Source: a virus. Taken from it: DNA of 64,000 nucleotides. The stretch covers positions 1 to 64,000 of IMG/VR virus record IMGVR_UViG_3300025137_000014, one strand, 5' to 3'. Below, one piece after another: positions 7,349 to 31,884 of this stretch. The position numbers and the translations under genes were made by a program. Numbering within the stretch: the stretch's first letter is position 1; every line of letters starts with the position of its first letter. The notes under the pieces were generated by a model, which was not told the origin of the DNA, ran no database searches, and saw only the letters and a program-made list of their open reading frames with translations.

Positions 7349-7372
7349 GTTCGTAGTTAAAAAGGAATCTAA

Positions 7373-7798: not shown

Positions 7799-7801
7799 AT
7801 T

Positions 7802-9246: not shown

Positions 9247-9292
9247 TTCAAACGTATATAAGTTACTCAATCCCAAAAAGATAAGTATTAAT

Positions 9293-10084
9293 ATGAAAGA
9301 AGTAGTTTTAGTAACAGGTGGATTCGATCCATTACATTCAGGTCATATAGAATACTTCAAGTCTGCTAAAGCATTAGGCAATGAACTAGTGGTAGGCATA
9401 AACTCAGATGAATGGTTAACTCGTAAAAAAGGTAGAGCATTTATGAACTTTGCTGAACGCAAAGTAATTATTGAGGCACTAGAAGTAGTTGACAAGGTTA
9501 TTGACTTTGATGATAGTGACGATACAGCCAGTTACGCATTATACAAGATACAATCTATGTATCCAATTGGTACTAAGTTTATATTCGCAAATGGCGGAGA
9601 TAGAGGTAATACTACAACACCCGAATACAAACAATATGCAGAAATGCCATGGGTTAGATTTGAATTTGGTGTAGGTGGTACAAACAAAAGAAACTCTAGT
9701 AGTTGGATACTTGATGATTGGAAAACACAGAGAACTCATAGAACATGGGGATACTGGCGAGTACTTGATGATAAACAACCTAAGGTTGGGCAGAAGATAA
9801 AAGAACTAGTTATCAACCCACGCAAGAGTTTATCAAATCAGAAACATAGATATAGAAACGAATATTGGTATGTCTTAGAAGGAGATATCATGATTGAACT
9901 AGAATTTAACAATAAAAAAGAAGCAATCTATCTGCGTCCACATGATACATTCTTAATACCTAAGGAATGTTGGCATAAAACAACGAATATTGGTGATGAT
10001 CCAGCACATATTATTGAAGTACAATATGGTGAAAGTTGTGAAGAATCAGACATTTTAAGAAAAGAAAACACTCTAAAAACTTGA
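9293..10084 (+). CDS. Cytidylyltransferase-like (RfaE-II/TagD type) domain fused to a cupin (ManC/PMI C-terminal type)
   Basis: TGGFDPLHSGH (HxGH), FANGGDR, then WGYWRVL...LSNQKHRYRNEYW...IIEVQYG. Start set at MKEVVLV. Confidence 0.8.
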   Translation: MKEVVLVTGGFDPLHSGHIEYFKSAKALGNELVVGINSDEWLTRKKGRAFMNFAERKVIIEALEVVDKVIDFDDSDDTASYALYKIQSMYPIGTKFIFANGGDRGNTTTPEYKQYAEMPWVRFEFGVGGTNKRNSSSWILDDWKTQRTHRTWGYWRVLDDKQPKVGQKIKELVINPRKSLSNQKHRYRNEYWYVLEGDIMIELEFNNKKEAIYLRPHDTFLIPKECWHKTTNIGDDPAHIIEVQYGESCEESDILRKENTLKT

Positions 10085-10108
10085 CAATATAGCGAATCGT
10101 GTTATAGT
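10076..10108 (+). promoter_or_regulatory. sigma70-type early promoter with GANTC
   Basis: TTGACA 10081 (contains the upstream TGA stop), CGAATCG 10093-10099, TGT-TATAGT 10103. Confidence 0.8.
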
Positions 10109-10139
10109 ATATACATAATCAACAACAGAGAGGTTAATT

Positions 10140-11720
10140 ATGAATACGAAAACACTAATAGCTACAGTATCAATGATTGTAGCACTGGCTACTTCATCGA
10201 ATGCGATGGATGAAAGTCAATTTAATCAAATGAAAAAGGACGGTATGATTACCACGTTTGGTAATTATATTTCTCCCGATAACAAAGTTGATACTGTGTG
10301 GGGTTCACATTATTATTTACCAAGTGATATGTTCGCAAAGAAAATAAAAGGTTCAATGGACGCAATATTTTGGTCAAATAGTCTTGCTTGGGGTAATTTC
10401 AATGGTGATGATACACCAGACTTAGTTATGGGTCATGAAATGAAAACTAGGTGTGAAGGTCTTGGTACAAAAGATACTCATACAGGTACTTGGTATTGTG
10501 AAGGTGAAACTCCTGATGATGTTTTGTCAATGCTACCATTTAGTATGTTTGAAGTATCTGACTCCATGAGAGAAAACCTAACTGACAATCTTATTGTCAC
10601 TGAAACAATGACAACTAGAAACTGTATTAGACCTCTAGTAGTAGATTTCAATAGTGATGGTATAGATGATTTGTTTTGTCCTAGTTCTACAGGTGGTAGA
10701 GATAAGAATGGTAAAGCATTCTTTGGTGGTGCCGACATGGTATTCATTTCAAATGGCAACGGTCAATGGGTTCAGACTAAAGAAAAAGGTGACATGGTAG
10801 GTAAGAACGGTTTCTACATGGGCTTTTCTCACGGTGCAACTGCGGCTGACATTGATAATGATGGTGACATAGATGTTATTACTCCTCATATACAATGGGA
10901 AAGCACTAAAGGTGGCGCAAAAATTTACTGTCATATAAATGATGGTAAAGGTAACTTCACTGTTAAGTGGTGTGCTGACCAATTTGCATTCTCAGTTACA
11001 ACTGGTGATTACAATGGTGACGGTAATGTTGACTTGATGGCGTCAGGTGGTTGGCATCAAAGCCCTGCTTACGCACATAACAATTCTAAAAAGCATCAGC
11101 AATCACCTATATTGTTTGGTGACGGTACAGGTAAATTTGGTAAGAATAAGAAATTAAAGTGGAAGTACTTAGAGCCTTCGTATGATATTTATGGTTCTAA
11201 TTTCTTGTTTACTTCTCTTATAGGTCCAGTATCATGGGACTTTGATAACGACGGTGATGTTGATATTGCCGGTACTTCAATAGGTCCTCTATACGTTGGT
11301 GGTACTCATACAGTATGGGCAAACGATGGTAAAGGTAACTTCACTGTTGCAGACCAAGTTCCATTAGAACAATCTCCAAAAGAGTTTTCTTCAAGAAAAG
11401 AATTCAAGAAGAAGATAGAAATGGAGACTAACCAATATAACTCGTACTGTGGTAGAAGTGTATTAATAGACTTGAATGAAGATGGACTTATGGATATCTT
11501 CTGTGATGGTCCTACACAAGACAAACATAACGGTTGGTTCTTTGTAAACCAAGGTAACTTAGAGTTTAAAAAAGTATCTCCTTACAAAGCATGGCAAGAA
11601 GGTTGGACCGATTACTACACTGGTGAATATGGTGGAGTAAACAAAAAGTTCGAAGGTTTCTTTGATGAAGACATGATGGGAGCAGGTGCTGGCTGGTGGA
11701 AGTATAAGTCAGACTTTTAA
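10140..11720 (+). CDS. Secreted FG-GAP/VCBS-repeat beta-propeller protein
   Basis: Signal peptide; six D-x-[ND]-x-D-G Ca-binding repeats (NFNGDDTPDL, DFNSDGIDDL, DIDNDGDIDV, DYNGDGNVDL, DFDNDGDVDI, DLNEDGLMDI); NDGKGNFTV occurs twice. Confidence 0.85.
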   Translation: MNTKTLIATVSMIVALATSSNAMDESQFNQMKKDGMITTFGNYISPDNKVDTVWGSHYYLPSDMFAKKIKGSMDAIFWSNSLAWGNFNGDDTPDLVMGHEMKTRCEGLGTKDTHTGTWYCEGETPDDVLSMLPFSMFEVSDSMRENLTDNLIVTETMTTRNCIRPLVVDFNSDGIDDLFCPSSTGGRDKNGKAFFGGADMVFISNGNGQWVQTKEKGDMVGKNGFYMGFSHGATAADIDNDGDIDVITPHIQWESTKGGAKIYCHINDGKGNFTVKWCADQFAFSVTTGDYNGDGNVDLMASGGWHQSPAYAHNNSKKHQQSPILFGDGTGKFGKNKKLKWKYLEPSYDIYGSNFLFTSLIGPVSWDFDNDGDVDIAGTSIGPLYVGGTHTVWANDGKGNFTVADQVPLEQSPKEFSSRKEFKKKIEMETNQYNSYCGRSVLIDLNEDGLMDIFCDGPTQDKHNGWFFVNQGNLEFKKVSPYKAWQEGWTDYYTGEYGGVNKKFEGFFDEDMMGAGAGWWKYKSDF

Positions 11721-11748
11721 TAACTAATTACTCTATATAAACTAAATT

Positions 11749-11775
11749 AGCCCGGCTCAGTGTCGGGCTTTTTTT
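11749..11775 (+). terminator. Intrinsic terminator
   Basis: AGCCCGG-CTCAGTG-TCGGGCT followed by a T run. Confidence 0.8.
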
Positions 11776-11778
11776 ATA

Positions 11779-11786
11779 GATAAATA
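11779..11786 (+). promoter_or_regulatory. Putative late promoter GATAAATA
   Basis: Immediately after a terminator, 26 nt before the sugar operon. Confidence 0.55.
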
Positions 11787-11812
11787 AGTATGTAGTTAAT
11801 AGAGAATTATAT

Positions 11813-12199
11813 ATGAAAAGAATTATTAAACTAGACCCAGATATTAATCCAATAACAGTTAAAGACGGTAGAGGTATAATCAGTACTTACTATCCTCAAA
11901 CAACTGATATTAAAGAATGGAGTTATATAGTAACTCTCAAGGGTTCTGTACGTGGACATCACTTACATAAAGAGTTTGACGAATATATTATGTTCGTAGA
12001 GGGCAGTGGTGTATATACTGAACTAACTGATGGTAAAGAACTAGTTACTCCTGTAGCAACTGGTGATTGTATCTTCATCCCTAGGTTAACACCTCATACT
12101 TTTTATCCAACTTCTGATTCAAAAGCAATCGCTCTTATAACAAAGAAATGGGACGATTGTATTGAACCGCTGACAAGAGTTGACAATGAAGAAAAATAA
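11813..12199 (+). CDS. Cupin, NDP-sugar isomerase/epimerase-like (RmlC/FdtA superfamily)
   Basis: GSVRGHHLHKEFDEYIMFVEG and IPRLTPHTF cupin motifs; NDP-sugar gene context. Confidence 0.7.
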   Translation: MKRIIKLDPDINPITVKDGRGIISTYYPQTTDIKEWSYIVTLKGSVRGHHLHKEFDEYIMFVEGSGVYTELTDGKELVTPVATGDCIFIPRLTPHTFYPTSDSKAIALITKKWDDCIEPLTRVDNEEK

Positions 12200-13388
12200 A
12201 AAGATAATTAGAATGATTGACAATGAACGTACTGATTGTAGAGTATGTGGAAGCCCTGTAAAAAAAATAATTGACTTTGGTAGAATACATATCAATGATT
12301 TTCCTACAACACCTGATGATACACCTGGCGAAGCACCTATGGTACTAGACCAGTGTGAGAAATGTGAGTTAGTTCAGCTTAGACACACAGTTAATCCAAA
12401 AATATTATATGGTGAACACTATTGGTATGAGAGTGGATTAAATTCTAAACTTAAAGATAACTTATTTGATATTGCAAGTTATGTAAATGAACACACTGAT
12501 AAAGGTGATGTAGTATTAGACATTGGTGCTAATGATGGTACGTTGTTAAGTGCAGTTAACTCAGATAGATATAGAGTCGGGTGTGAACCAGCACCTAATC
12601 TAATTAAGAAGTTAGTGAAAAACTGTGAAGCAACTATAAACGATATGTGGCATTATAAACTAATGCAAGGTAAGAAAGCTAAAGTTATTACTGCTATTGG
12701 TATGTTTTATGATATGGATAATCCAAATGACTTTATCTACAGTGTCAATGAAGCATTAACAGATGATGGTATTTTTATTGCACAGTTAATGACACTTGCT
12801 CCAATGCTTAAAATGAAAGACTTGGGTAATGTATGTCATGAACATTTAGAATATTATAGCTATAAAAGTCTTGTAGAGTTATACGAAAGCAATGGTCTTG
12901 AAATTTATAAAGTAGTAGAGAACGATATACAAGGTGGTAGTTATCAACTATGGGCTAGAAAAAAGAATGAAGGCAGTATAGAATATCATGAAGATTTATC
13001 TTCTTTAGAAACTTTCTTTAAAGATGTAGAACGAAATGGTGCATTGCTAAGAAGTGTATTACAAGATTCAAAAGTAGCTGGCAAAAAGAATTATGTCTAT
13101 GGTGCTAGTACAAAAGGAAATACAATGTTACAGTTTTGGAAACTGCATGATTTATTTGAAGGTGCCGCAGAAATTCATCCAGATAAAGTAGGCAGATATA
13201 CAGTTGGCACAGGAATACCTATTGTACATGAAGATGATGCAAAGAAAGATGCAGACTTGTTCTTTGTTCCTAATTTTGGATTTAAAGATATGTTTGTTGA
13301 AAAAGAAAGTGAATGGATTGAACAAGGAGGTAGAATGCTCTTTGCAATGCCAGATGTAAACGTAGTAGAAAAGAAATGGACGAAGTAA
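12180..13388 (+). CDS. NDP-sugar C-methyltransferase (TcaB9/EryBIII-like, Zn-binding class I MTase)
   Basis: CRVCGS...CEKCELVQL zinc site, LDIGANDG, HEHLEYYS, YGASTKGNT. Exact start uncertain. Confidence 0.85.
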   Translation: MTMKKNKKIIRMIDNERTDCRVCGSPVKKIIDFGRIHINDFPTTPDDTPGEAPMVLDQCEKCELVQLRHTVNPKILYGEHYWYESGLNSKLKDNLFDIASYVNEHTDKGDVVLDIGANDGTLLSAVNSDRYRVGCEPAPNLIKKLVKNCEATINDMWHYKLMQGKKAKVITAIGMFYDMDNPNDFIYSVNEALTDDGIFIAQLMTLAPMLKMKDLGNVCHEHLEYYSYKSLVELYESNGLEIYKVVENDIQGGSYQLWARKKNEGSIEYHEDLSSLETFFKDVERNGALLRSVLQDSKVAGKKNYVYGASTKGNTMLQFWKLHDLFEGAAEIHPDKVGRYTVGTGIPIVHEDDAKKDADLFFVPNFGFKDMFVEKESEWIEQGGRMLFAMPDVNVVEKKWTK

Positions 13389-13552
13389 TAATTTATGTTG
13401 ATGGCGAAGAAGCCATTTGCATGGGCGAGGATCTAAGCCATCCTAAAGTTTATTACTCTGTTCCTAAAGAAGGATTTGTAGTATGTGGATACTGCGGTAT
13501 TAAATTTACAAGAAAGAAAGAAGATGGAAGCGAGAGCAGTAAAACAAATTAA
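13376..13552 (+). CDS. zf-CHCC zinc-finger protein (NDUFS6/NUMM-like family), 58 aa, missed by the track
   Basis: Hand translation MDEVIIYVDGEEAICMGEDLSHPKVYYSVPKEGFVVCGYCGIKFTRKKEDGSESSKTN*, with C15-H22(PKVY)-C37-x2-C40. Confidence 0.75.
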   Translation: MDEVIIYVDGEEAICMGEDLSHPKVYYSVPKEGFVVCGYCGIKFTRKKEDGSESSKTN

Positions 13553-14120
13553 TCCAGTCGAGTCTCTAAATATACCTGGACTGTGGGACAACACTGTTTG
13601 GGTAAACCACGAACATCGTAGATACTTTATACCTATTTGGAGAAATGGTAACACATGTTTTATGTATAATATTGCTGAACAATATAATTATAAACTTGAA
13701 AAATTAGATAAAGATGCAGGATACATAGGCTATGTTTATTTAAGAAACCCTGACTTGCGTATAGAAGGACAACTTGAAATGGCTATTGCAAATAGTGAAC
13801 GAACAAACACAGTAGAAGATTGTTTAATACAAATACAAAAAGATACTGGATATCCTTTTGATATTCACTATAGACCTCAAGTTAGTTTTTTAGAAGGTTA
13901 TGATATAAAATATTATTTAGATTTAGATAATTTAAAACATGTAGGCGATAATCATATAGACAGTGTAACAGATTCAATGAAGGCGGCGACTCTTGCTCCG
14001 GCAGGAATTAACTATAGAAATCCTAAGATAGGAAATCTAACAATAAAGCCTCATCAAAAACAAATTATAAAACAAGTATATGAAAAAGATTATATCTTAT
14101 TCAAGGAGAAAATAAAATGA
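13524..14120 (+). CDS. Sulfotransferase family 2-like protein (divergent)
   Basis: FIPIWRNGNT (5'-PSB-like), LRNPDLR (RDP..R-like), HYRPQ, IKQVYEKDYILF. Start moved to MEARAV. Confidence 0.6.
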   Translation: MEARAVKQINPVESLNIPGLWDNTVWVNHEHRRYFIPIWRNGNTCFMYNIAEQYNYKLEKLDKDAGYIGYVYLRNPDLRIEGQLEMAIANSERTNTVEDCLIQIQKDTGYPFDIHYRPQVSFLEGYDIKYYLDLDNLKHVGDNHIDSVTDSMKAATLAPAGINYRNPKIGNLTIKPHQKQIIKQVYEKDYILFKEKIK

Positions 14121-15010
14121 GAATTGCAATAACAGGCGGAGCAGGATATGTTGGTTGTAGGCTAAGTGAACAACTATTAAATAATGGACATGAAGTTATT
14201 TGTATAGATTGGTTAAAGTATGGAGTACAACCTATATTAAATATCTTAGATAGAAAAGGATTTCATCTATACAAAATGGATATATGTGATCCAGCAGTCG
14301 AACCTATTCTAAAAAATTCTGATGCAGTAATTCATCTAGCAGGTATCGTAGGCTATCCTTCATGTGAGCGTGAACCTGATTTAGCATACAGAATTAATGT
14401 AGAAGGAACTAATAGAGTTATTGATGCTTCTATTGATAAGCCGTTCGTATATGCAAGTACGGGAAGTGTATATGGTGAACTGGGAAAAACATGTGACGAA
14501 ACATGTGAGACTAACCCCATTAGTACGTATAGTGTATATAAACTTGATGGTGAAAAGAAATTAAAAGGAACTGATGCAGTTATTCTAAGACCAGCAACTG
14601 CATTTGGTGTGAGTAATAGATTGAGGCAAGACTTACTTGTTAATGACTTTACTTATAAAGCAATAGCTGAAAAGAAATTGGTCTTATTTGAAAAGCACTT
14701 CAAACGTACTTTCTTAAGCATTAACGACTTGGCACGTTCATTTAGATGGGCGTTAGAGAAATACGATATTATGAAAGGCGAAATATGGAATGTCGGTGAT
14801 GAAAAATTAAATCATACCAAGCTAGACATTGCACAAATTATTAAAAAGAAAGTCGATTATGAATTAATCATTAATGATGAATTATCTCACGATAAAGATG
14901 GCAGAGACTATTTTGTTGACTATACAAAAATTAGAAACATCGGATTTACTGCTACCGAAACTCTTGAAGATGGTATTGATAGTTTAGTTAAGTTATATCA
15001 CGCCGCGTGA
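14117..15010 (+). CDS. NAD-dependent NDP-sugar epimerase/dehydratase (extended SDR)
   Basis: ITGGAGYVG, VIHLAGIVG, ASTGSVYG, YSVYK (YxxxK). Confidence 0.9.
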   Translation: MRIAITGGAGYVGCRLSEQLLNNGHEVICIDWLKYGVQPILNILDRKGFHLYKMDICDPAVEPILKNSDAVIHLAGIVGYPSCEREPDLAYRINVEGTNRVIDASIDKPFVYASTGSVYGELGKTCDETCETNPISTYSVYKLDGEKKLKGTDAVILRPATAFGVSNRLRQDLLVNDFTYKAIAEKKLVLFEKHFKRTFLSINDLARSFRWALEKYDIMKGEIWNVGDEKLNHTKLDIAQIIKKKVDYELIINDELSHDKDGRDYFVDYTKIRNIGFTATETLEDGIDSLVKLYHAA

Positions 15011-16071
15011 TTTTTAATGACACTTGCAATTTTCTTTACGTCTTCTTCACGTAAATCAAACTGACCAGGCAAATGTAAGCCTCTAGTTGCTAGTTCGTCT
15101 GCTATTGGTGTAGGTGTTTTCCACTTACGATGAAAAGGTTGATTACAAAGACTATCATATACTGCACGACAACCTATACCTTCTGTACGTAGTTCTTCAA
15201 CAAGTTTATCTCTCTTGCTTACTAGTATCTCTGGATACGTAGGTGTTGCATATTCTAAATCTGTAGGAATAAAATCTACTACTCCCTTTAAGTGTGTACG
15301 ATACCATTTAAATAACTGTTTCTTATGTTGTACTATGAATGGTAACTTCTTCATTTGAGGTACACCGAATGATGCTTGTAAGTCTGTGAACTTAAAATTT
15401 AATCCCATTACATTATAAACTTCGCCTACTTTAACTGTTCTGCCAAAGTTTTTAATAGCATGAATTTGTTTACTAATATTTTCATCGTTAGTAACGATAC
15501 AACCACCTTGTCCTGTAGTAATAATCTTTGGTGCACCAAAACTAAACACACCCATATCACCCATAGTACCACAGTGTATATCGTTGATTGTTTTGCTTCC
15601 CAATGCTTGTGCAGAGTCTTCAATAACGACTCTACCATTTTCTCTTAAAGATTTGATTCGTTCATGAACATCTTTAGGGTATCTACCATTAATTGCTGAT
15701 ACAAATATAACTCTACAATCTGCTGGTATCTTATCAAAGTTTATACAATAATTAAATGGGTCAACATCAACTATTACAGGAACACCGCCCATTAATATTG
15801 CACCATTACATGTAGCCGCTTGAGTATATGCACTTACGGCAAACTTCTCTCCTGGCTTGATTTTAGCTACCATAGAAGCACACAGGAGACCCGTAGTAGC
15901 ACTTGTTACCATGTGTGCATACTTGGCGCCTGTATAGTCACATATAAGTGATTCTAATTCTTTAGTTTTTGTGTGTTCCATAATCCACCCACTAGAATTT
16001 ACGTAGTCATATACGCTATCAATTTCTTCTTTCCCGTATACGGGATTCATGTGACTATTCTTTGTAAGCAT
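14998..16071 (-). CDS. DegT/DnrJ/EryC1/StrS PLP-dependent sugar aminotransferase
   Basis: IEDSAQALG, SFGAPKIITTGQGG (PLP lysine), GLNFKFTDLQA. Confidence 0.92.
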   Translation of the reverse strand: MLTKNSHMNPVYGKEEIDSVYDYVNSSGWIMEHTKTKELESLICDYTGAKYAHMVTSATTGLLCASMVAKIKPGEKFAVSAYTQAATCNGAILMGGVPVIVDVDPFNYCINFDKIPADCRVIFVSAINGRYPKDVHERIKSLRENGRVVIEDSAQALGSKTINDIHCGTMGDMGVFSFGAPKIITTGQGGCIVTNDENISKQIHAIKNFGRTVKVGEVYNVMGLNFKFTDLQASFGVPQMKKLPFIVQHKKQLFKWYRTHLKGVVDFIPTDLEYATPTYPEILVSKRDKLVEELRTEGIGCRAVYDSLCNQPFHRKWKTPTPIADELATRGLHLPGQFDLREEDVKKIASVIKNHAA

Positions 16072-16103
16072 TTGGAACCTTCTCTGTCTTATGTGTTACA
16101 TGT

Positions 16104-16112
16104 GTATTTATC
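16104..16112 (-). promoter_or_regulatory. Putative late promoter GATAAATAC
   Basis: In the short intergenic gap, 32 nt upstream of the DegT start, followed by an AGAGAAGG SD. Confidence 0.55.
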
Positions 16113-16116
16113 TATT

Positions 16117-17007
16117 CTACACCTGTTCATAATACCATTCATACGTTTTAGCGAATGCTTCTTCCATTGAAAATTTAGGAACCCAACCTAACTCTTTTAA
16201 ACGTGTATTGTCAATCGCTCTATTCTTAATTCCTTCAGGTCTATCAGTATTAAACCATAAGTTACCTTTGTATCCACTAACTTTAATTAGTAATTCAGCA
16301 ATCTCTCTAATAGATATCTCATACCCACTTGCTACGTTGACTGTATCGTATTTGTCATTATTTAAAATTATATCCATTCCTGAAACTGCATCTTCAATAT
16401 AAAGTATATCTCTGCTTTGATTTCCAGAACCCCATATCTCAATGCTATCTGTATTATTCTTACATGCATCTACAAACTTCTGCATCAACGCACCGATTAC
16501 ATGAGCATGTTCGCCTGTTCTGTCATGTGGTCCAAACATGTTTGTGTTTATCGCTGTACGCCAATTGGTATCATACTTTTCATTACTTGCTCTACACTGA
16601 TACATTCCCATTAGCTTAGGCAAAGCAGTTGGGAAATATGTAGCATAAGGTTCACCTTGAAGTAGTTGTGTTTCTTTATAAGGTTGATTTCCTATCTCAG
16701 GATAACTACACGTGCTTCCTTGTAATAATACTCTATCTGTTTTTGCAACATGACATGCTTCAAATATATTATTTTGAATTGTTAGGTTCTTAATCATTAA
16801 TTCAAAACTCTTATCTAGGTCTTCTTGCAGTCCACCGACAGTAGCGGCATTTATAACGACATGTGTATGTTTCAATTTGATATCTTGCTTAGTTGAGATA
16901 TTAGATGTGAAGTCTACATTCTGTGTATTGCCTCCTTCTGCATCTGGTATTAATTTCTTATACCATGTGCCTACAAGTCCTCTATCTCCTGCTATATAAT
17001 ATTTCAT
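16117..17007 (-). CDS. fcl: GDP-L-fucose synthase-like epimerase/reductase
   Basis: IAGDRGLVG, INAATVGG, GSTCSYP, NMFGPHD, WGSGNQSRDILYIED. Confidence 0.8.
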   Translation of the reverse strand: MKYYIAGDRGLVGTWYKKLIPDAEGGNTQNVDFTSNISTKQDIKLKHTHVVINAATVGGLQEDLDKSFELMIKNLTIQNNIFEACHVAKTDRVLLQGSTCSYPEIGNQPYKETQLLQGEPYATYFPTALPKLMGMYQCRASNEKYDTNWRTAINTNMFGPHDRTGEHAHVIGALMQKFVDACKNNTDSIEIWGSGNQSRDILYIEDAVSGMDIILNNDKYDTVNVASGYEISIREIAELLIKVSGYKGNLWFNTDRPEGIKNRAIDNTRLKELGWVPKFSMEEAFAKTYEWYYEQV

Positions 17008-20000
17008 TATTCTTTATCCTTATGTATTATAAAGTAATCATTCAATTCTGGAGTGGGACAATGTTTAGTTGACTTTGGTGTTTCGTGTCCTCTATGTGAA
17101 TTTTGCCAATGTGAGATATGTCCTACTTCTCCATCAAATCCTTCGAATGAAGAATACGCATATGGAAATGGTTGTATGACTGCGGAGCCACCTGGTTTTA
17201 ATTGTGTTAATATACAATCTACAAAGTGTTGTATGTCACTGCTTTCGAAAGGAGCAAAGAAAGTATTTCTATCTTTATTCTCATCAGTAATTTGCCAAGC
17301 CTGTGATATATTACCATTTACTAATCTAACAATCTTATCTGTTTTCCAAAATACATTTGACATATTCATAAGTATTATATCATATTTTTCATTAGGATCA
17401 AAGTCTTTTCCGTATGTGTGTTCTATATTATTAAGTAAATCAAAGTCTTTGCGTGGTTGTATATGTACATCTGCTGGTCTTACTATACCTAATGTATTCC
17501 AGACAAATTTAAGTTCATCTAACGAGTCGCCCGCTTCTTTATATGAGTTAGTAGAATATACATTAGTAAATCCTTCCTCTTTTAAAAAGTGTGGCATAAA
17601 ACCAAAATGTGTTCCTATATCTAAAATCTTAATATCTTTAGGTGCATAGTTTAAACCCAAGTTATCAAGTATCATAGAATGATTAACCCAATATGCAGAC
17701 TCTAAAGATGATTGCAAGTACTTAGAATGTTGAACAAGTTTTCTATTTAAAGATTTAAATTTTTTCTTATGTGTATCTTTAAATGTATCAAAGTAATTTT
17801 CAAACCTATAACCAATTCTACCAGTACTATATGGTTTTCTAAAACGCCAAGAACCAAATTCATTATAGTTTATAATATCCCAATGATAGTTATCATTAAC
17901 CCAATCTTTTTCTTCTTGAGTTAATTTACGTGGAGTATCAACTTTTTCTTCCTTTAATATTCTAGCAATATGTCTTGACGAATCTCTATGCCCAAACGTT
18001 CGGTGCCAATCCTTGCCTCGTTCATGATATCCTGTATTATGTATATCATCCATGTCTATCGTCCAAGCTACATTTAATCCATGTTGACTCGCACTTTGTT
18101 GTTGAAGTTCTTTCAAATCTTCTGGTTTATTAAAATCTTCACCCAGTATTTTACCTGTTGTCTCTAAAAATGATGCAAATCTTTTATGTGGATCTCTTGT
18201 AATTGCTATAGCAGGTATATCTTTTATGTTATCAAGATTTTTTTTATTAACTAATCTATAACCTAAATGAGGTGCTACTTTTTTAGCAACAGCTTTATCT
18301 AGTAATCCAACTGTAGGTATTATGATTGTGTTAGTATTCTCACTATACCAAACGTAGTTGTATATAGAATTGTGTGTCACATCGTCAAATTTGGCGTCCT
18401 CAAGCTGTGCTTTGTAGTCACCATTACTTAAAGATTCAAATGCACGTTTATATACTAATGGAGCATAAATATTTTTGTAATGATAGTAATTAAAATCAAG
18501 TACTTCTAGTAATGATTTATCATACTTCCATTCAGTACCATCTCTACGTAATTCAGTATAATCTACAATATTTTTAATTACTTTTGCTATCGCCTCTATA
18601 CGTTCAGCATAAGGCAATTCATCATATGATTCATCCCAATAGCCATCAAATGTTTTGAAGCCTAGATTTCTTAAGTTCTTAAGATAACCTTTATCGCCTA
18701 CAATAACGAATGGCTTTTTAGATAATATTGCTTGTGAAAGTTTTTCACTTATAGAAACATGCTCGTCACTAGATGTAAACTCTGTTATTAGTTCTAGGTA
18801 TGACCTTCTCCTATAAGGTAACATTTCTTCTAATCTATTTAAGGAAGACCCTGCTAACCATTCGTCCCGTGCATGTTGCATACTAAATGGTAATTCTTTT
18901 TTATAATACTCTCTAATAATTTCATCAGCTATGTCTTTGTTATATGAATAGCCGATACGTCCTTCAATAGACTGTATATCACTATCATATAACGGATCGC
19001 CTATACCGTAGTTATCTGTTCCTAAAAAACTATAGTAAGCATTATCTTTTATATTTGTATGATTTTCAATTAGCTTTGCTAATATATCAAGTCTATGGTT
19101 TCTAATTCTTTTATTAAGAAATAAGATATGTTTCTTAGAAATGTTAGCGATATCAAAGTTCCATTTTTCGTCATACTTATTTTCTATCTTGCCCTGTTCA
19201 TAGTCTGCAAAACGTAAGGTACTTGTTGATACAGTTAAGAATTCAACATCGCCTTCTACTTTTGTATCTTCAAACATTGTCCAGTATTTTACATTTTTAA
19301 CATTTTTCTTTTTAGAATAGAACTTGTTTATTTTTTCATAATAAGATATTGGTATAAGTTCTGCACCCATATCAAATATAATACATGCTTTTCCTTCTTC
19401 TAATTCTTTATTAATAGTTTTGTCTTTAATAGTTTTATCAATTAATTTATCAGTCAATGTAAGATAATCATATCCATCAAATTCGTCTTCACCAAAATGT
19501 TCCCATGCAATTAATGGAGATATAAAATAATACTTTTCAAATCTAACATCATCATGTATTTCGTCTATAAAGTTTTGATACATATCATAATGCTGAGGTT
19601 CTGCGTGTATCGTTTGTATTCTAGGCGAACGGTTAATCATCCATTTATTATAAAACATTCGGGGCATTATCTTTTCGGTCTTTCTCATACTTTGCATAGT
19701 AGCATTAAATTCTGTATTAGTTTCTTTTCCACAAAAGATTGAACATGTACGCAATCTTTTATTGTTAACGTTATTGTCTTTCCAATTATCAGGCCAGTGT
19801 TTCTGAAACATTGGGCCATTAATTATGTCTTCTAATTTAGTGTGTTCTAAACTTATTTTATCTCTACCAAAATCATTAATAAATTCTTGTAGCTGAGTTG
19901 TTTCTTCATCAGGGAAAGCGTATAGTTTACTTGCAGTCATACAACACGGAAATACTAATCCTTCACTAGTAACAAAAATACTTTTTGGTTTAATAACTAT

Positions 20001-20894
20001 GCAATCAATTTTAGTTTTACCCATCTTGACTTCGTGCGGAGTAAGTGGTCTATCTTTATCCCATTCATATTTATGGGTATAGGCTTCTTTACCAGAAGTT
20101 TTTGATTTAGTAAAATGTATTTCTTGTAAAATCTTTTCAGGATTGTCAGTATCATCTCCTTCAACTTTTTTAAAAGATGAGTTTGCAATATAAGTATTAA
20201 TCAATTCATTAGTATTACCATCAGACGGTGGATGTATATCGTAATCTTTTAATCCACGTTCATTAAATACTGCTAGTGTCGGTTGTGCTTTTCCTTCGTC
20301 ATTATTAACAAATCCTAATGCTTTTTTAGAATAGAACTCATGTATACCAATTTCTTTCGCTAACTGCTTTGCTTCTTCTACTTGGTGTTGATTATGTTTG
20401 AATACTAAGAACTCCCATCTGGCATGTCCACCACCTTTGATATAATTTTTCATAGCAGACATAATCTTAGACCAGTGTGTTCCTCGTCTATAAATCCAAT
20501 TAGTATTTTCTAGTCCGTCTACACTAAAAGTCATATGACCATTGGTGCCTATTATCTTGCCTAGTTCTTGCCAAAACTTTGGATTACGGCCACTGGCATT
20601 TGAATTCATAGTAATTTTAATATTTGGATTTATAGATTTTAGATATTTTAGAATATCAATAAGTTCTGGGTTAGTCATAGCATCACCATAATTTCCACAC
20701 AGTGACATTCCAAATAATTGTGCTAAAAATTTCTTATCGAAATACTTTTTGAATTGCTCTAACTTTACATAAGTTTCTTTGTATCTTGGATTCTTTCGAC
20801 CGCCCTGTTCTCTGCGATTACATACAGGACATAATGCATTACAAAGACTACTACTTTCGAAATCTAAATGTAATATCTCATCATGAGTGTACAT
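17007..20894 (-). CDS. 1295-aa multidomain fusion: radical SAM+SPASM, glycosyltransferase-like, sulfotransferase-like, class I methyltransferase
   Basis: CNALCPVC, C-terminal VFPCC...CSIFC; SISEKLSQAILSKKPFVIVG...LGFKTFDGYWDESYD; AITRDPHKRFASF; KILDIGTHFG. Confidence 0.75.
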   Translation of the reverse strand: MYTHDEILHLDFESSSLCNALCPVCNRREQGGRKNPRYKETYVKLEQFKKYFDKKFLAQLFGMSLCGNYGDAMTNPELIDILKYLKSINPNIKITMNSNASGRNPKFWQELGKIIGTNGHMTFSVDGLENTNWIYRRGTHWSKIMSAMKNYIKGGGHARWEFLVFKHNQHQVEEAKQLAKEIGIHEFYSKKALGFVNNDEGKAQPTLAVFNERGLKDYDIHPPSDGNTNELINTYIANSSFKKVEGDDTDNPEKILQEIHFTKSKTSGKEAYTHKYEWDKDRPLTPHEVKMGKTKIDCIVIKPKSIFVTSEGLVFPCCMTASKLYAFPDEETTQLQEFINDFGRDKISLEHTKLEDIINGPMFQKHWPDNWKDNNVNNKRLRTCSIFCGKETNTEFNATMQSMRKTEKIMPRMFYNKWMINRSPRIQTIHAEPQHYDMYQNFIDEIHDDVRFEKYYFISPLIAWEHFGEDEFDGYDYLTLTDKLIDKTIKDKTINKELEEGKACIIFDMGAELIPISYYEKINKFYSKKKNVKNVKYWTMFEDTKVEGDVEFLTVSTSTLRFADYEQGKIENKYDEKWNFDIANISKKHILFLNKRIRNHRLDILAKLIENHTNIKDNAYYSFLGTDNYGIGDPLYDSDIQSIEGRIGYSYNKDIADEIIREYYKKELPFSMQHARDEWLAGSSLNRLEEMLPYRRRSYLELITEFTSSDEHVSISEKLSQAILSKKPFVIVGDKGYLKNLRNLGFKTFDGYWDESYDELPYAERIEAIAKVIKNIVDYTELRRDGTEWKYDKSLLEVLDFNYYHYKNIYAPLVYKRAFESLSNGDYKAQLEDAKFDDVTHNSIYNYVWYSENTNTIIIPTVGLLDKAVAKKVAPHLGYRLVNKKNLDNIKDIPAIAITRDPHKRFASFLETTGKILGEDFNKPEDLKELQQQSASQHGLNVAWTIDMDDIHNTGYHERGKDWHRTFGHRDSSRHIARILKEEKVDTPRKLTQEEKDWVNDNYHWDIINYNEFGSWRFRKPYSTGRIGYRFENYFDTFKDTHKKKFKSLNRKLVQHSKYLQSSLESAYWVNHSMILDNLGLNYAPKDIKILDIGTHFGFMPHFLKEEGFTNVYSTNSYKEAGDSLDELKFVWNTLGIVRPADVHIQPRKDFDLLNNIEHTYGKDFDPNEKYDIILMNMSNVFWKTDKIVRLVNGNISQAWQITDENKDRNTFFAPFESSDIQHFVDCILTQLKPGGSAVIQPFPYAYSSFEGFDGEVGHISHWQNSHRGHETPKSTKHCPTPELNDYFIIHKDKE

Positions 20895-28154: not shown

Positions 28155-28160
28155 TAGAGT

Positions 28161-29141
28161 TTATTTGTCCCAACCGGTTTGCTTCTCTGTTGCTAGTGGA
28201 TTATTAACTCTTGGTGGATTAGTATATACTCGTTTGAAAAATGAGGCTACTTCTGGAGTTGGATCACATAGTTCCATATCCATCTTATCTACTAAGATAT
28301 CACCGGTTTCTAAACATGCATCAAATAGTTTTTCATAATTCCATTCTAGTTTTGTTTTTTCACACTTCATATCTCCGCCTTGAAATTTAGGAAATACTGT
28401 ATTATCAAAGTACTCTTTAAACCAGTCAAAGCTAGAAATGTTTGCTAAGACAAAATCAGGGTTAAGATTTGTATCATAACAACCTAATCTTGCACCATAA
28501 CATGCCCATATACCATTCTCTACGTTTGCCCCAATATTCATCCAAGTAATCAGACGTTCATAATTTTTAGGCCATATACGTTTTTTAAATTCATCTACTG
28601 GTACTTTCTTGCCTTCATCAAGTGACATTTTAGAACCTTCACGATAACCTGCACGAAAGGCTTGAAATGGGGATCCGGCATTATGTACTGTAGAATAAAT
28701 ATTATTCATCTGAATATAATTTAAGTCCCAACAAAAATCTACTTTCTTTGTTTCGTCTACTGCGTTTTCATGTGTCTTCATATCTAATACAAGTTGTACT
28801 GGCCAGCATTTAATGCCTCCATTACCATATACTAGACCGTTAACTACGTTCTTTGCAGACCAACTAATAACTGAATTAACTAAATCAGTTCCATCTGGGA
28901 ATGTTAATTCGATATCAAAAAACTTTTCATCTACGATATTATCACCATCAATAGTAATAAATCTGTCTGTATCACTCTGTCTTGCACACTCTTTGTGTGC
29001 ATTATCAAATCCTTTTACACCATCTACTCTTTTTGCAAATGGAAATTTGCTTATAATATCTGCCCAATGTTCTTCTTTGTTAGGCTCATCGTAACTTAGA
29101 TAAAATACATCTAACTCACCGATTTCTAGTTTGCTCATCAT
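28161..29141 (-). CDS. GT-A-fold glycosyltransferase-like protein
   Basis: DVFYLSYDEP, RVDGVKGFDNAH, FITIDGDN (DxD). Confidence 0.55.
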   Translation of the reverse strand: MMSKLEIGELDVFYLSYDEPNKEEHWADIISKFPFAKRVDGVKGFDNAHKECARQSDTDRFITIDGDNIVDEKFFDIELTFPDGTDLVNSVISWSAKNVVNGLVYGNGGIKCWPVQLVLDMKTHENAVDETKKVDFCWDLNYIQMNNIYSTVHNAGSPFQAFRAGYREGSKMSLDEGKKVPVDEFKKRIWPKNYERLITWMNIGANVENGIWACYGARLGCYDTNLNPDFVLANISSFDWFKEYFDNTVFPKFQGGDMKCEKTKLEWNYEKLFDACLETGDILVDKMDMELCDPTPEVASFFKRVYTNPPRVNNPLATEKQTGWDK

Positions 29142-29731
29142 GTCCTCCTGAATGAATATGTTTCTAAATACTTCTGTGTATATAAACTTATACTGTATTT
29201 ATTATATTCGAATTTAACCTTAGTCTCAGTACTCAATAGTTGTCCGAACGGAATAGATACTGTTTGTATGATAAAATCTGGTCTATTTTCATATGTTATA
29301 AAAAAAGGGTGATGAGTTTTGCCTGCAACTGTAACATTTTGATGTTTGTCTACATTTGCATTCTTTCTAACCTTTTTACTAGGAGAGAAGCATAGTTCTG
29401 AACCATCCCATGTTACTTCTATATCACAATATTTTGTATCTGATAGTTTATATAACTGAGAATCTTTACTTCTTTGTTTGATATCTACTTTAGACTTTAT
29501 GATTTCATAAACAAAGATATCATCTGTGCTTACTACCTTATAGTCTGAAAATTTATAATCGCCTGTTAAAAAAGGCAGAATAGCCTCTATTGTGAACCAA
29601 GTACTCTTAAGTAGTGGGTTTGAGTCTTCTGAATGCCTAGATGCAATACTATGTATATCGCCTGCATCATTGAAGAATACTACTCTTGAATTCTTAGTTT
29701 CATGTGTGAACCCGGTGCTTAATATTTTCAT
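29138..29731 (-). CDS. Hypothetical phage protein
   Basis: 197-aa ORF, ATGA-coupled on both sides. Confidence 0.7.
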   Translation of the reverse strand: MKILSTGFTHETKNSRVVFFNDAGDIHSIASRHSEDSNPLLKSTWFTIEAILPFLTGDYKFSDYKVVSTDDIFVYEIIKSKVDIKQRSKDSQLYKLSDTKYCDIEVTWDGSELCFSPSKKVRKNANVDKHQNVTVAGKTHHPFFITYENRPDFIIQTVSIPFGQLLSTETKVKFEYNKYSISLYTQKYLETYSFRRT

Positions 29732-30585
29732 ATATCTAGTGCCTTTTCATACATATTAATTTTTTCTTGTGTTAGCCAGTTCTTTTCAACGTAATGAAAA
29801 GGAAGTGACTGTTCGTAGTTTGCTACACGAATTTTTAAATCATCTGACATGCTACTTGGTATACTATCTGTCCAAATGCCAGATATTTTATTATTAGGAA
29901 TATTTTGAATGTAACTTTTCATGTGTACAAATGTTGGTACATCTTTAATATCATTATCAATAACTTCTTCTTCTAAATCTAATAAACGTATAGCTAATGC
30001 ATATGCCAAGTCTGCACTCATCCAGGTCTGTCCTGTTCCTTTAAGAAATTTATCATAATACACATTCCAATGAACCATAATCAATTCAATCATTTTAAAC
30101 AATTCAAAACTTGTATCAGATTCTTTAAAATAAGTCATGTTACTATATACATTAGGTAATTCTAATTGTGTAAATTTTTTACGATAGTAATCGTCTTCTA
30201 CTAATTCGTTTCTAAATGTCTTAACATGTGTACAAGCCCATACATCTTTTTTAGATAAATGATCCCACCAATGGTCAACAGGATGTGTAAATAAAACATC
30301 AGTATCAAGAATGATAGTTTCTTTAAATGGTGTCATGTGTGGATACTTCCACTTATTATGAATTTTCCATTCATCTGCACCTGCATCATCATTCCATGGG
30401 ATATCAACGATATGGTCAAACACTTCTTTGTGTTTTCCAGTGAGTTGTGTTTTAGTATATTCGTCAACGCATACACAAATCGCATTTTCTTTCTGTGTAG
30501 CTTTAAGCGACAATGCCAAAGCATAAGCCTGATTAAGATAATCATACTTACTATTCTGGGCTATAGCAATGTATCCCCTACTCAT
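29728..30585 (-). CDS. GT-A (GT8-like) glycosyltransferase-like protein
   Basis: AYALALSLK, TPFKETIILDTDVLF (DxD), FVHMK, PFHY. Confidence 0.65.
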   Translation of the reverse strand: MSRGYIAIAQNSKYDYLNQAYALALSLKATQKENAICVCVDEYTKTQLTGKHKEVFDHIVDIPWNDDAGADEWKIHNKWKYPHMTPFKETIILDTDVLFTHPVDHWWDHLSKKDVWACTHVKTFRNELVEDDYYRKKFTQLELPNVYSNMTYFKESDTSFELFKMIELIMVHWNVYYDKFLKGTGQTWMSADLAYALAIRLLDLEEEVIDNDIKDVPTFVHMKSYIQNIPNNKISGIWTDSIPSSMSDDLKIRVANYEQSLPFHYVEKNWLTQEKINMYEKALDI

Positions 30586-31451
30586 AGAGTATCTCCTTGC
30601 GCCAATAGTGTATCTATATTGCGTTCTATTGCAGATTTATTCATAATGTGTATATCTGTATTTGTAAATCTAGCTAACACATGTTCTATTGTTTTATCAG
30701 GTTTAGCACAATACATTATAATATCATTACTGCTATTAACTCTAAAAATATCATCTAAATCAAAACTATTGTTTAGATAATCAATAGGCAACGATGGTAC
30801 TTCGCATGCCACTTGCCCATTTAAAATATGAACAGCCATTGAAAATGCAAAATCGTTCCTAAATAATGTACCTGAACAATTATACAAATAGTAATAGTAC
30901 TTATAATTTTCTTTTATATGACTAACTAACGTAAATAAATTTTCAGTGTATTCAGATTTTTTAAAATAGAAAACTGTTGCCCAATACATCGGTATGGAGA
31001 AATCATCAATATAGGATATGTTACCGCCATGTCTACCAGCAACATCCCTATATTGACAATTAATCATGAAGTCGTTTTCACTACCCCATACTTGGTCAAG
31101 TGTGTTACTCATTACAAAGTAATCACAATCGATAACCAAACTTTCTTCGTAAGGTGAGAGGTCATATACGTCACTACGAGACATATTGACAAAAGGAGCA
31201 TACTGCGATTGTCCAGCAGTATCCTTGAATAGTCTTATATTACTATCCTGTTTTGATGCGGAAATAATAGTTCTATCGAAATACTTGTTTACTAATTCTT
31301 CGTTATCTAATAAAGATTCGTTATTAGTAACTAAAGCAATTTCATCAAAGCCTGATAGATTCTTTCTGACATAACCTGCACACGTACATGCAATTTTTAT
31401 GTAATCTAGTAACCCATTATTTGTTGCAAAGATTATAATTCCTTTGCTCAT
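30582..31451 (-). CDS. GT-A glycosyltransferase-like protein (paralog)
   Basis: SPYEESLVIDCDY (DxD), YWATVFYFKKS, RNDFAFSMA. Confidence 0.6.
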   Translation of the reverse strand: MSKGIIIFATNNGLLDYIKIACTCAGYVRKNLSGFDEIALVTNNESLLDNEELVNKYFDRTIISASKQDSNIRLFKDTAGQSQYAPFVNMSRSDVYDLSPYEESLVIDCDYFVMSNTLDQVWGSENDFMINCQYRDVAGRHGGNISYIDDFSIPMYWATVFYFKKSEYTENLFTLVSHIKENYKYYYYLYNCSGTLFRNDFAFSMAVHILNGQVACEVPSLPIDYLNNSFDLDDIFRVNSSNDIIMYCAKPDKTIEHVLARFTNTDIHIMNKSAIERNIDTLLAQGDTL

Positions 31452-31831
31452 TAGATTTCCAGAACCTTCTCAATCTTACGTGAACTACGTAACTTTTGAT
31501 AATCATTATAGTATTCATTGATAACTTCGAAATACAAACTAGAAATATCTTCTAAGAATTTCGTAGTATCTTCAAGTTTAATTGGAATGTCGTTCTTATC
31601 AAGCAGGATGACTTCTGTTTTGCCTGCATCAACAATAGTACTCATAAATCCAATTAATTCTTGTGACACTTTAAATGTACCACCATTACTACTATAGTTC
31701 AGTAAATTTTGTGTTTTAACTTTTAAGTTGTTTTTATTAAGATTGAAAGTCTGCATAGTGTTTGAAAACTCTAATGCTCTTTCTAGCCGTTCAAGTTCGG
31801 TACTTGAAGGCGTAATATTTTCTTTTGACAT
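31451..31831 (-). CDS. Conserved phage hypothetical protein
   Basis: Start at MSKENIT with AGGAG SD; helical C-terminus. Confidence 0.7.
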   Translation of the reverse strand: MSKENITPSSTELERLERALEFSNTMQTFNLNKNNLKVKTQNLLNYSSNGGTFKVSQELIGFMSTIVDAGKTEVILLDKNDIPIKLEDTTKFLEDISSLYFEVINEYYNDYQKLRSSRKIEKVLEI

Positions 31832-31855
31832 GGTTATACTCCTTGTATTCTTTAT

Positions 31856-31884
31856 ATAATACAAGAAAATAGGCTGTTTGTCAA
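31856..31884 (-). promoter_or_regulatory. sigma70-type promoter for the minus-strand modification operon
   Basis: Minus strand TTGACA (31884-31879), 17-nt spacer, TATTAT (31861-31856); no GANTC. Confidence 0.65.

Follow-up and report, generated by a model that had tools for sequence, protein, structure and literature searches.

Predicted sugar-synthesis, glycosyltransferase and radical SAM genes form a conserved island beside the baseplate genes of an uncultured marine phage

What does a large phage make with some 22 kb of sugar, glycosyltransferase (GT) and radical S-adenosylmethionine (SAM) genes lying directly behind its tail and baseplate genes? The question is raised by the first 64 kb (the window) of the 187 kb IMG/VR record IMGVR_UViG_3300025137_000014 (completeness estimate 51%), in which a first-pass annotation had proposed a pathway to a methyl-branched, aminated, possibly sulfated and acetylated glycan. 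We describe this island as a conserved, partly modular set of soluble enzymes predicted to act in the synthesis, transfer, methylation and radical chemistry of unusual sugars. Of the proposed features, the C-methyl branch and the amino group are well founded; sulfation comes down to short motifs, and acetylation or deacylation is just a lead. That the enzymes act on one product, the order of the steps, the radical chemistry and the acceptor are what we infer.

Phage relatives and conservation of the island core

The phage is an uncultured marine member of the ~340 kb Rak2-like group. The placement follows from its gp6-like baseplate wedge protein (43400–47725, minus strand), which is ~33% identical to counterparts in Rak2-like jumbo phages, and from its close relatives, which include a complete genome (a 342,607 bp contig with terminal repeats); near-identical DNA was not found among 50,697 GenBank phage records. 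The island does adjoin the baseplate genes, as had been noted at first pass, and the tail genes, and a 223 amino acid (aa) gene upstream of it is a conserved structural gene in Rak2-, PA5oct- and CBB-like phages.

When IMG/VR was scanned with the 326 aa GT-A protein of the island, 64 loci were identified, and nearly all of them have a syntenic block containing the 223, 302, 317, 137, 289, 285, 197 and 326 aa genes together with radical SAM paralogs. We take as the core the six genes for the 137 aa protein, two GT8-like proteins, the 197 aa protein, the GT-A protein and a radical SAM protein of the N_Twi_rSAM family. Among the same GenBank phage records, the GT genes are present only in the Ralstonia jumbo phage RsoM2USA (MG752970), where ORF354–ORF349 represent the core in identical order and at 32–48% identity. 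The GT-A protein is the most conserved (48% to ORF350), followed by the 285 and 289 aa GT8-like proteins (39% to ORF352 and 37% to ORF353), the 522 aa radical SAM protein (34% to ORF349) and the 137 aa protein (32% to ORF354), with a 184 aa ORF at the position of the 197 aa gene. In order, the RsoM2USA products are 123, 289, 282, 184, 317 and 473 aa long against 137, 289, 285, 197, 326 and 522 aa in the window. The RsoM2USA core lies directly downstream of ORF361, 359 and 356, whose products were found in virions by mass spectrometry (PMC8504454), and in every case the core comes directly after virion genes. Conserved synteny across related jumbo phages had been named as a check on the first-pass proposal, and the core is indeed kept in the IMG/VR loci and in RsoM2USA rather than scattered. 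The island is nonetheless accessory, because only RsoM2USA has the GT genes and XacN1, named as its sister phage (PMC8504454), did not turn up in the GT-gene searches of GenBank phages.

Both the tailoring genes and the sugar genes vary among relatives. In the nearest relative (L145) most genes are 90–97% identical, but the 249 aa protein (62%), the SGNH-like protein (37%), the 1295 aa fusion protein (54–66%) and the FG-GAP protein (72%, against ~96% for its neighbours) have diverged; a 211 aa ORF is missing and two extra genes are present. In the 79% relative G001 (342 kb) the cupin and C-methyltransferase are kept, the DegT gene is missing and there are at least six N_Twi_rSAM copies. This variation looks like the serotype-like variation of surface antigens. 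We note that two contigs binned as bacterial metagenome-assembled genomes, L138 (NZIN01000062, 'Rickettsiales MED606') and L140 (NHCU01000062, 'Betaproteobacteria TMED41'), carry fibre-like genes and GT8-like, GT-A and radical SAM genes in the phage order, and these are probably mis-binned phage contigs.

Nucleotide-sugar genes

Six genes called as nucleotide-sugar genes at first pass all hold up by Pfam, NCBIfam or PDB matches (Table 1). The nucleoside diphosphate (NDP)-sugar 3-C-methyltransferase has the three-domain architecture of its type, in which a zinc-binding N-terminal domain and a class I methyltransferase domain are followed by a C-terminal C-methyltransferase domain, with Methyltransf_13 (residues 20–77), Methyltransf_23 and Methyltransf_14 (residues 271–391), and it aligns over its full length with the D-mycarose 3-C-methyltransferase (PDB 4rv9; E 4e-31, residues 18–396) and with TcaB9 (E 5e-25, residues 17–396); homologues at 51% identity are encoded in the relatives G001 and G002. 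The pyridoxal phosphate (PLP)-type aminotransferase matches both the PseC and LegC models of NCBIfam at ~1e-47, under the cut-offs of each. For the short-chain dehydrogenase/reductase (SDR) the top NCBIfam match is dTDP-glucose 4,6-dehydratase (82 bits, below cut-off), and it is a candidate NDP-hexose 4,6-dehydratase; the small cupin, which has a 38% homologue in G001, is a candidate NDP-ketosugar isomerase or epimerase. The Fcl-like protein scores 221 bits against the GDPFucSynFcl cut-off of 500. The nucleotidyltransferase-cupin, likely to start at the ATG at 9293 and 96% identical in L145, matches rfaE_dom_II (1e-18, below cut-off), and its top NCBIfam matches are heptose-1-phosphate adenylyltransferase and glycerol-3-phosphate cytidylyltransferase, all under cut-offs.

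Directly preceding the nucleotidyltransferase-cupin, and in one early-type unit with it, is an AdoMet-decarboxylase-like gene (8863–9246; Pfam AdoMet_dc 3e-14). It may be part of the island, as a source of aminopropyl donor or in SAM turnover, and in L145 a 127 aa ORF occupies the matching position (position alone compared).

Glycosyltransferases

The four GT-like domains noted at first pass are confirmed as the 326 aa GT-A protein, two GT8-like proteins and a GT-B domain in the fusion ORF described below. The 326 aa protein fits no CAZy or Pfam family, and a profile search against the PDB gave no match. An AlphaFold2 (AF2) model built from 23 homologues (mean predicted local distance difference test score, pLDDT, 89.6) has a GT-A fold at residues 4–155, and D65-x-D67 is invariant in all 23 sequences. 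The model aligns with the Leptospira glycosyltransferase 6p61 (Z 10.1, root-mean-square deviation 3.0, 136 residues) and at Z ≥8 with more than 100 chains, including STIV A197, B4GALNT1, WrtF, SpsA, Mimivirus R699 and SunS/ThuS (Z 8.5–9.6); Foldseek also matches PBCV-1 A64R.

The 285 and 289 aa proteins are distant paralogs. A joint profile of the two matches 19 glycogenin sequences (E 2e-5 to 3e-4) over profile positions 5–120, a span that covers the nucleotide-binding and DxD region and in which D96 of the DxD is invariant. Neither ORF matches any Pfam family up to E 5, nor do any of 16 family members match Pfam GT8, and we therefore refer to them as GT8-like rather than as GT8 members.

Radical SAM proteins

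Five radical SAM domains had been counted in the island, and the count is correct: four belong to NCBIfam NF033640 (N_Twi_rSAM, twitch domain-containing radical SAM protein) and the fifth is an ordinary radical SAM-SPASM domain in the 1295 aa ORF. The four paralogs score 362, 332, 306 and 298 bits against a cut-off of 170 bits that was reached by none of 14 control genomes. They are only 20–24% identical to one another, indicating ancient divergence, and the 522 aa protein is the copy kept beside the GT-A gene. Their alignment has invariant cysteines C9, C28, C78 and C81 in the N-terminal region, followed by C134, C138 and C141 (CxxxCxxC), and GGEP is kept; Pfam SPASM matches at residues 9–82 and 26–113 precede the Radical_SAM match. 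The N-terminal twitch region alone has no PDB match in a profile search, and weak PDB matches of the radical SAM enzymes include BlsE and SkfB. The family is catalogued without a characterised member, and our literature search found no paper on its function or on its occurrence in phages or Bdellovibrio. A homologue search with the 398 aa paralog returned more than 1000 close homologues in marine metagenomes, all of them close marine relatives.

Further radical SAM genes are present outside the island in the 187 kb record (90111–90617, 125047–125523 and 181508–181819), in which there are nine PF04055 matches overall. In the cultured Vibrio phage K566 (OZ196521; 161.5–179 kb), an 18 kb stretch next to a PagP-like gene contains five N_Twi_rSAM-like genes, of which two score over the cut-off; a single copy is present in each of the KVP40/nt-1-like Vibrio phages.

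A four-part fusion protein

The ORF at 17007–20894 encodes 1295 aa in four parts: a radical SAM-SPASM domain, a GT-B domain, a middle domain and a class I methyltransferase, the last in agreement with the first-pass call. In an AF2 model of the C-terminal 896 residues (pLDDT 86), residues 10–427 form the GT-B domain and residues 653–895 the methyltransferase. The GT-B domain (~409–826 of the fusion) has the two-Rossmann fold, with matches to 7mi0 (Z 12.1, 284 residues aligned), T4 beta-glucosyltransferase (1c3j, Z 11.2), Helicobacter pylori alpha-1,3-fucosyltransferase (2nzx, Z 11.0, 270 aligned) and TreT (Foldseek 8e-5), and these tied scores favour no particular family such as GT10. Structural matches of the methyltransferase include the sugar N-methyltransferases TylM1 and CalS10. 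The middle domain has no PDB sequence match and no short or annotated homologues, and the matches of a wide fold search on the 896 aa model were all to the GT-B and methyltransferase domains and so are uninformative about it.

The fusion appears to be peculiar to this genome. In L145 the radical SAM-SPASM protein is a separate 415 aa gene that is adjacent to and overlaps the GT-B/methyltransferase gene, and relative to L145 a 4 nt indel and several substitutions at the junction erase the stop codon and the ribosome-binding site.

Transcriptional organization

Thirteen minus-strand genes (31864 to 16117) overlap by 1–32 nt or are separated by at most 6 nt, which confirms tight packing for the minus-strand operon proposed at first pass. 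This 15.7 kb GT/radical SAM operon is preceded by the best sigma70-type promoter of the region, with 11 of 12 consensus positions matched. Of 32 distinct relatives, 30 retain its hexamers and 17 nt spacing although the spacer diverges, with a frequency of 0.0045 in shuffled sequences. Sigma70-type promoters also precede position 7373, the FG-GAP gene and the unit starting at ~7802 that holds the AdoMet-decarboxylase-like and nucleotidyltransferase-cupin genes. In T4-like regulation a sigma70-type promoter denotes early expression.

A second motif, GATAAATA, is of late type. The window has five copies against 6.9 expected, and it is thus not over-represented, but all five are in the sense orientation and 20–33 nt before a start codon. 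They precede three baseplate/structural genes, the cupin/C-methyltransferase/SDR unit and DegT. The sigma70-type and late-type elements between them divide transcription in the window into two simple classes. The first-pass suggestion that the sugar genes have late-type promoters therefore applies to that unit and to DegT, but not to the nucleotidyltransferase-cupin or the long operon, which are behind sigma70-type promoters. We considered and rejected an arrangement with the entire cluster as one late operon, because the promoter of the long operon is of the conserved sigma70 type; the island is instead a mosaic of early-type and late-type units. With late-type motifs before sugar units, finished sugars would appear late, at virion assembly.

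Table 1. Positions of island genes, domains and promoter elements in the window
Feature	Position	Strand	Basis or remark
Nucleotidyltransferase (cytidylyltransferase/RfaE-domain-II-like) fused to mannose-6-P-isomerase-type cupin	9221..10084	+	Pfam CTP_transf_like 1e-12, MannoseP_isomer 1e-18
FG-GAP/VCBS beta-propeller protein with Sec-type signal peptide	10140..11720	+	Pfam FG-GAP_3 2e-22; N-terminus read
Small cupin	11813..12199	+	Pfam Cupin_2 2e-8; weak FdtA match 1e-3
NDP-sugar 3-C-methyltransferase (TylC3/TcaB9/MtfC type)	12180..13388	+	Pfam Methyltransf_13 and Methyltransf_14
211 aa ORF, GTG start	13485..14120	+	RNP..R motif only; insertion relative to nearest relative
SDR epimerase/dehydratase	14117..15010	+	Pfam Epimerase 3e-35
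DegT/PseC/LegC-type PLP sugar aminotransferase	14998..16071	-	Pfam DegT 4e-64
GDP-fucose-synthase-like (Fcl-like) 3,5-epimerase/4-reductase	16117..17007	-	NCBIfam GDPFucSynFcl 2e-65; final gene of long operon
Fusion part 4, class I SAM methyltransferase domain	17013..17741	-	Fold Z 11.5; weak Pfam Methyltransf_23
Fusion part 3, middle domain with RDP..R..S motif	17748..18395	-	Motif only
Fusion part 2, GT-B fold glycosyltransferase domain	18417..19670	-	AF2 model and fold search
Fusion part 1, ordinary radical SAM with C-terminal SPASM	19695..20894	-	Pfam Radical_SAM 9e-8 plus SPASM
N_Twi_rSAM paralog, 398 aa	20894..22090	-	NF033640 3e-108, 362 bits
DUF6071/SGNH-like protein, 288 aa	22078..22944	-	Atlas lead; variable between relatives
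N_Twi_rSAM paralog, 466 aa	22913..24313	-	NF033640 5e-99; N-terminal SPASM match 2e-7
249 aa protein, confined to this phage clade	24303..25052	-	Motifs only
N_Twi_rSAM paralog, 515 aa	25049..26596	-	NF033640 3e-91
N_Twi_rSAM paralog, 522 aa	26586..28154	-	NF033640 1e-88
GT-A fold glycosyltransferase-like protein, 326 aa, helical C-terminal half	28161..29141	-	AF2 model, fold search
197 aa Ser/Thr-rich (20%) protein	29138..29731	-	No family match
GT8-like (glycogenin-like) GT-A glycosyltransferase, 285 aa	29728..30585	-	Joint profile against glycogenin
GT8-like paralog, 289 aa	30582..31451	-	Joint profile against glycogenin
First operon gene, ~126–137 aa	31451..31864	-	Likely start ATG 31831
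Main operon promoter, TTGACA-17-TATTAT	31856..31884	-	11/12 consensus positions; short hairpin overlapping
Sigma70-type promoters (CTTGACAA, 17 nt spacer, TATAAT-like hexamer)	7312-7372, 7768-7801, 10081-10139, 31856-31884, 48828-48878
Late-type motif GATAAATA	11779, 16105, 34545, 48113, 60318		Motif scan of window
GATAAATA before cupin unit	11779..11786	+	26 nt ahead of cupin start
GATAAATA before DegT	16105-16112		DegT's own motif

Variable and unassigned genes

Several products could not be placed in families, and the remaining ORFs of this kind have no match in Pfam (to E 5), PHROGs or NCBIfam. The 137 aa protein is 34–95% identical among relatives, and the 197 aa protein evolves fast, at 27–87% identity where its neighbours are at 51–96%. 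The 249 aa family, with only 39 homologues and none of them annotated, has invariant R11-x-G13-S14-T15 and R117-x-D119..S126 segments; the RSGST and R.D..DT..S motifs recall Stf0-type sulfotransferases, although such short motifs are not diagnostic, and there is a weak Atlas lead to one cluster with PF09037 in 12% of its members. RDPHKRFAS occurs in the fusion's middle domain, where no P-loop is clearly recognisable. The 211 aa ORF is missing from L145, where the gap between the methyltransferase and SDR genes is just 124 nt; a 58 aa zinc-finger-like ORF (13376–13552) overlaps its start. These two proteins and the middle domain had been read as sulfotransferase-like, a call that is not confirmed: none has a Pfam, NCBIfam or PDB sulfotransferase match, BLASTP found no significant similarity among them, and what is left is short motifs and the one Atlas lead.

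For the 288 aa protein, called SGNH at first pass, the Atlas model (pLDDT 0.59) points to DUF6071 clusters (0.96) and to GDSL/DUF6071 structural neighbours (TM 0.53–0.64), and GCS(16)xT, TN(107)P and H263 are invariant in three sequences. The Atlas lead and the invariant Ser, Asn and His agree with the call, but there is no Pfam hidden Markov model or PDB sequence match. The FG-GAP protein, with signal cleavage after SNA and its own sigma70-type promoter, lies within the cluster and is not a sugar enzyme; its gene is followed by a strong intrinsic terminator (11750–11775; stem GCCCGGC...GTCGGGC, then T7). RsoM2USA encodes a VCBS-repeat protein elsewhere in its genome.

Bacterial relatives and membrane components

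One genome per prokaryote species was scanned with the four N_Twi_rSAM paralogs, and of the 77 best loci 61 are in Bdellovibrionota, in which there are arrays of up to ten or more copies. Alongside N_Twi_rSAM, 22 of the 77 loci have a SPASM-type radical SAM protein (~30% identity) and nine have a member of the 326 aa GT-A family. One example is the isolate Bdellovibrio sp. HCB2-146, where five or six GT2 glycosyltransferases are encoded beside the radical SAM genes; at another locus, a UDP-glucose dehydrogenase is encoded along with a DUF6071 protein. Proteins with 4–13 predicted membrane helices are encoded in 34 of 50 long bacterial loci. This context of GT2 and membrane proteins argues that the radical SAM families belong to glycan pathways generally.

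The phage version, however, has no export or lipid-carrier machinery of its own. Using a 19-residue Kyte-Doolittle window above 1.6, we found no transmembrane window in any of the 20 cluster proteins or in three of the four structural proteins just upstream, and a single borderline window (1.65) in the fourth, a 2944 aa protein. There is thus no flippase, polymerase, ligase or polyprenyl-phosphate transferase in the island.

Possible products and acceptors

A tentative explanation, to which we give somewhat less than an even chance, is that the island encodes a self-contained, membrane-free cytoplasmic glycan line whose acceptor is most likely baseplate/tail virion proteins. The nucleotidyltransferase-cupin would activate a sugar phosphate, and the SDR, small cupin, 3-C-methyltransferase, PLP aminotransferase and Fcl-like enzyme would convert it to C-methyl-branched and/or amino deoxysugars. 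The two glycogenin-like GT-A enzymes, the third GT-A enzyme, which represents a new family, and the GT-B domain could then build a short glycan on a soluble acceptor, most likely at least one virion protein of the baseplate/tail-fibre block immediately upstream. The class I methyltransferase, the SGNH-like protein, the small clade-specific proteins and the five radical SAM enzymes would edit the sugars, the last probably by abstracting hydrogen atoms from unactivated carbons, with oxidation, epimerisation, dehydration or alkylation as the outcome, and variation in the tailoring genes would give related phages differing surface glycans. We favour a virion acceptor because the position of the island is conserved over a very large evolutionary distance, and because it is soluble and self-contained, with its sugar supply partly under late promoters and its variation surface-antigen-like. 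Somewhat unlikely, although worth stating, is a more specific proposal in which N_Twi_rSAM is a new class of glycan-editing radical enzyme acting with the new GT-A family on a protein-bound tail-fibre/baseplate glycan. Paralog arrays and swappable tailoring genes would then generate serotype-like virion diversity that sets host range or shields the particle, with the same chemistry acting on surface glycans of the predatory Bdellovibrionota.

Several observations weigh against a virion target. Neither a glycan nor an acceptor nor an enzymatic activity is on record for any of the members, and the GT-A and GT-B fold matches are generic, with Z scores tied across many families. The 317 aa fibre-like family encoded upstream of the island is also present in PA5oct-like phages that have no island; this protein was considered as an exclusive partner of the island and rejected, since it is not an obligate one. 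The early-type promoter of the GT/radical SAM operon suits modification of DNA or of the host envelope at least as well, the embedded secreted FG-GAP protein hints at action at the level of the envelope, and these two features together with the bacterial context fit host-envelope remodelling. Unusual sugars would in that case be added to or edited on lipid-linked lipopolysaccharide (LPS), capsule or S-layer intermediates, using the carrier lipid, flippase and ligase of the host, and the changed surface would block superinfection or the sticking of progeny to debris. The retention of the early-type promoter in 30 of 32 relatives, the FG-GAP protein with its signal peptide and early-type promoter, and the Bdellovibrionota counterparts, whose clusters combine GT2 genes with the multi-pass membrane proteins usual in surface-glycan assembly, all point this way, and LPS-type gene clusters in marine cyanomyoviruses have been read as host-envelope remodelling. 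We nevertheless consider it unlikely, although it is the main rival to a virion acceptor: nothing in the island is membrane-associated, even very distant phages carry it at the end of the tail/baseplate block, and a sugar supply partly behind late-type promoters comes late for protecting a cell about to lyse.

Other explanations appear much less probable. Attachment of tailored sugars by the GTs to a modified base in phage DNA, for restriction evasion, would fit the early-type promoter and the wholly soluble enzymes, and the GT-B domain does align with T4 beta-glucosyltransferase; glycan hypermodification of phage DNA is established, according to Pyle et al. 2024 as cited in PMC12619734. However, many unrelated GT-B enzymes match the domain equally well, tail genes and not replication genes are linked to the island, and C-methyl amino sugars and five radical SAM enzymes are without precedent on DNA. 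The complete relatives G006 and G001 each have a single thymidylate-synthase-family gene far from the island, a synthase or possibly a hydroxymethylase that scores ~340 bits to the canonical model, and the record of the window, a 51% fragment, has no ThyA-family gene; there is therefore no clear sign of a hydroxymethyl-pyrimidine pathway. Overall, DNA is a very improbable target. A soluble natural product, such as a free oligosaccharide, an aminoglycoside-like compound or a glycosylated peptide with the 137 or 197 aa product as a possible scaffold, is scarcely better placed. Antibiotic sugars are usually made with such a toolkit (a mycarose-type 3-C-methyltransferase, an aminotransferase, a TylM1/CalS10-like methyltransferase and twitch/SPASM radical SAM enzymes), the GT-A protein resembles the peptide S-glycosyltransferases SunS and ThuS, and two small fast-evolving proteins are encoded inside the conserved core; but such resemblances in fold are generic, no exporter, protease or recognisable precursor peptide is encoded in the cluster, the tightly packed operon leaves no space for hidden small genes, and the bacterial counterparts resemble surface-glycan clusters. 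Least probable of all is a loose collection of unrelated accessory genes (morons) without a common product. The post-tail region is variable, with insertions such as the 211 aa ORF and the FG-GAP gene and with several transcription units under differing promoter types, but a single operon takes in thirteen overlapping or abutting genes, marine phages and a soil Ralstonia phage have the core in the same order, the radical SAM, SPASM-type and 326 aa GT-A families travel together in bacteria too, and the radical SAM-SPASM and GT-B/methyltransferase genes fused here are adjacent in relatives. The remaining probability falls to something else.

The consequences would differ with the target. If the glycan is on the tail apparatus, glycan diversity would join the ways in which large phages tune adsorption, and with the host envelope or DNA as target, the island would represent a new mechanism of defence or exclusion.

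Relationship to known systems

Glycosylation encoded by phages has been recognised on DNA, on a few virions and in lysogenic serotype conversion. The first-pass annotation knew of no characterised phage pathway with the present combination, and this agrees with our searches of the literature on phage radical SAM proteins with twitch domains or GTs and on Bdellovibrio clusters, which found no description of such islands; a 'moraphage' paper concerns a different lineage and merely lists its GTs (PMC12619734). No earlier description joins a full C-methyl/amino deoxysugar branch to four GT domains and five radical SAM enzymes, and the new elements are the complete deoxysugar branch, the promoter architecture, the fusion and the occurrence of the core in a cultured phage. 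Of catalogued families the closest is NF033640, to which most of the radical SAM proteins belong and which is abundant yet has no characterised member. The four proteins in the window share with NF033640 the N-terminal four-cysteine cluster followed by CxxxCxxC and GGEP, and they are long-diverged paralogs interleaved in a phage with GTs and tailoring genes.

Giant viruses encode their own NDP-sugar pathways. Virion glycosylation in mycobacteriophages (Freeman et al. 2023, as cited in PMC12619734), chloroviruses and giant viruses likewise has virus-encoded soluble GTs beside structural genes, and the 326 aa protein aligns with A64R, STIV A197 and R699, a generic fold match. These systems have no radical SAM enzymes; the island described here is linked to virions by the position of its genes, and its long operon has an early-type promoter. 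With the antibiotic deoxysugar pathways (TylC3/MtfC/TcaB9 and DegT types) the island shares full-length C-methyltransferase homology and a DegT aminotransferase, but no equivalog cut-off is reached and the context is a lytic phage rather than an actinomycete cluster. The twitch enzymes BtrN and BlsE are similarly radical SAM proteins with auxiliary clusters in a sugar context, although their auxiliary cluster is C-terminal and that of N_Twi_rSAM is N-terminal. Bacterial O-antigen and capsule clusters have NDP-sugar genes, several GTs, tailoring enzymes and serotype-like variation in gene content in common with the island; however, the initiating transferase, flippase or ABC transporter, polymerase and ligase are all missing from it, and it is not a Wzx/Wzy- or ABC-dependent cluster. 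Each of these systems thus overlaps with the island in part, and none in full.

A further comparison is with RsoM2USA ORF346–358, all annotated as hypothetical, which have the same core order after virion genes. RsoM2USA represents a minimal version, whose two radical SAM genes are divided between this locus and another part of the genome; the locus has no C-methyltransferase, DegT or fusion gene, and a second GT-A paralog and an SDR are encoded among the virion genes. The presence of the core in this cultured phage makes the product of the island and its target directly testable.

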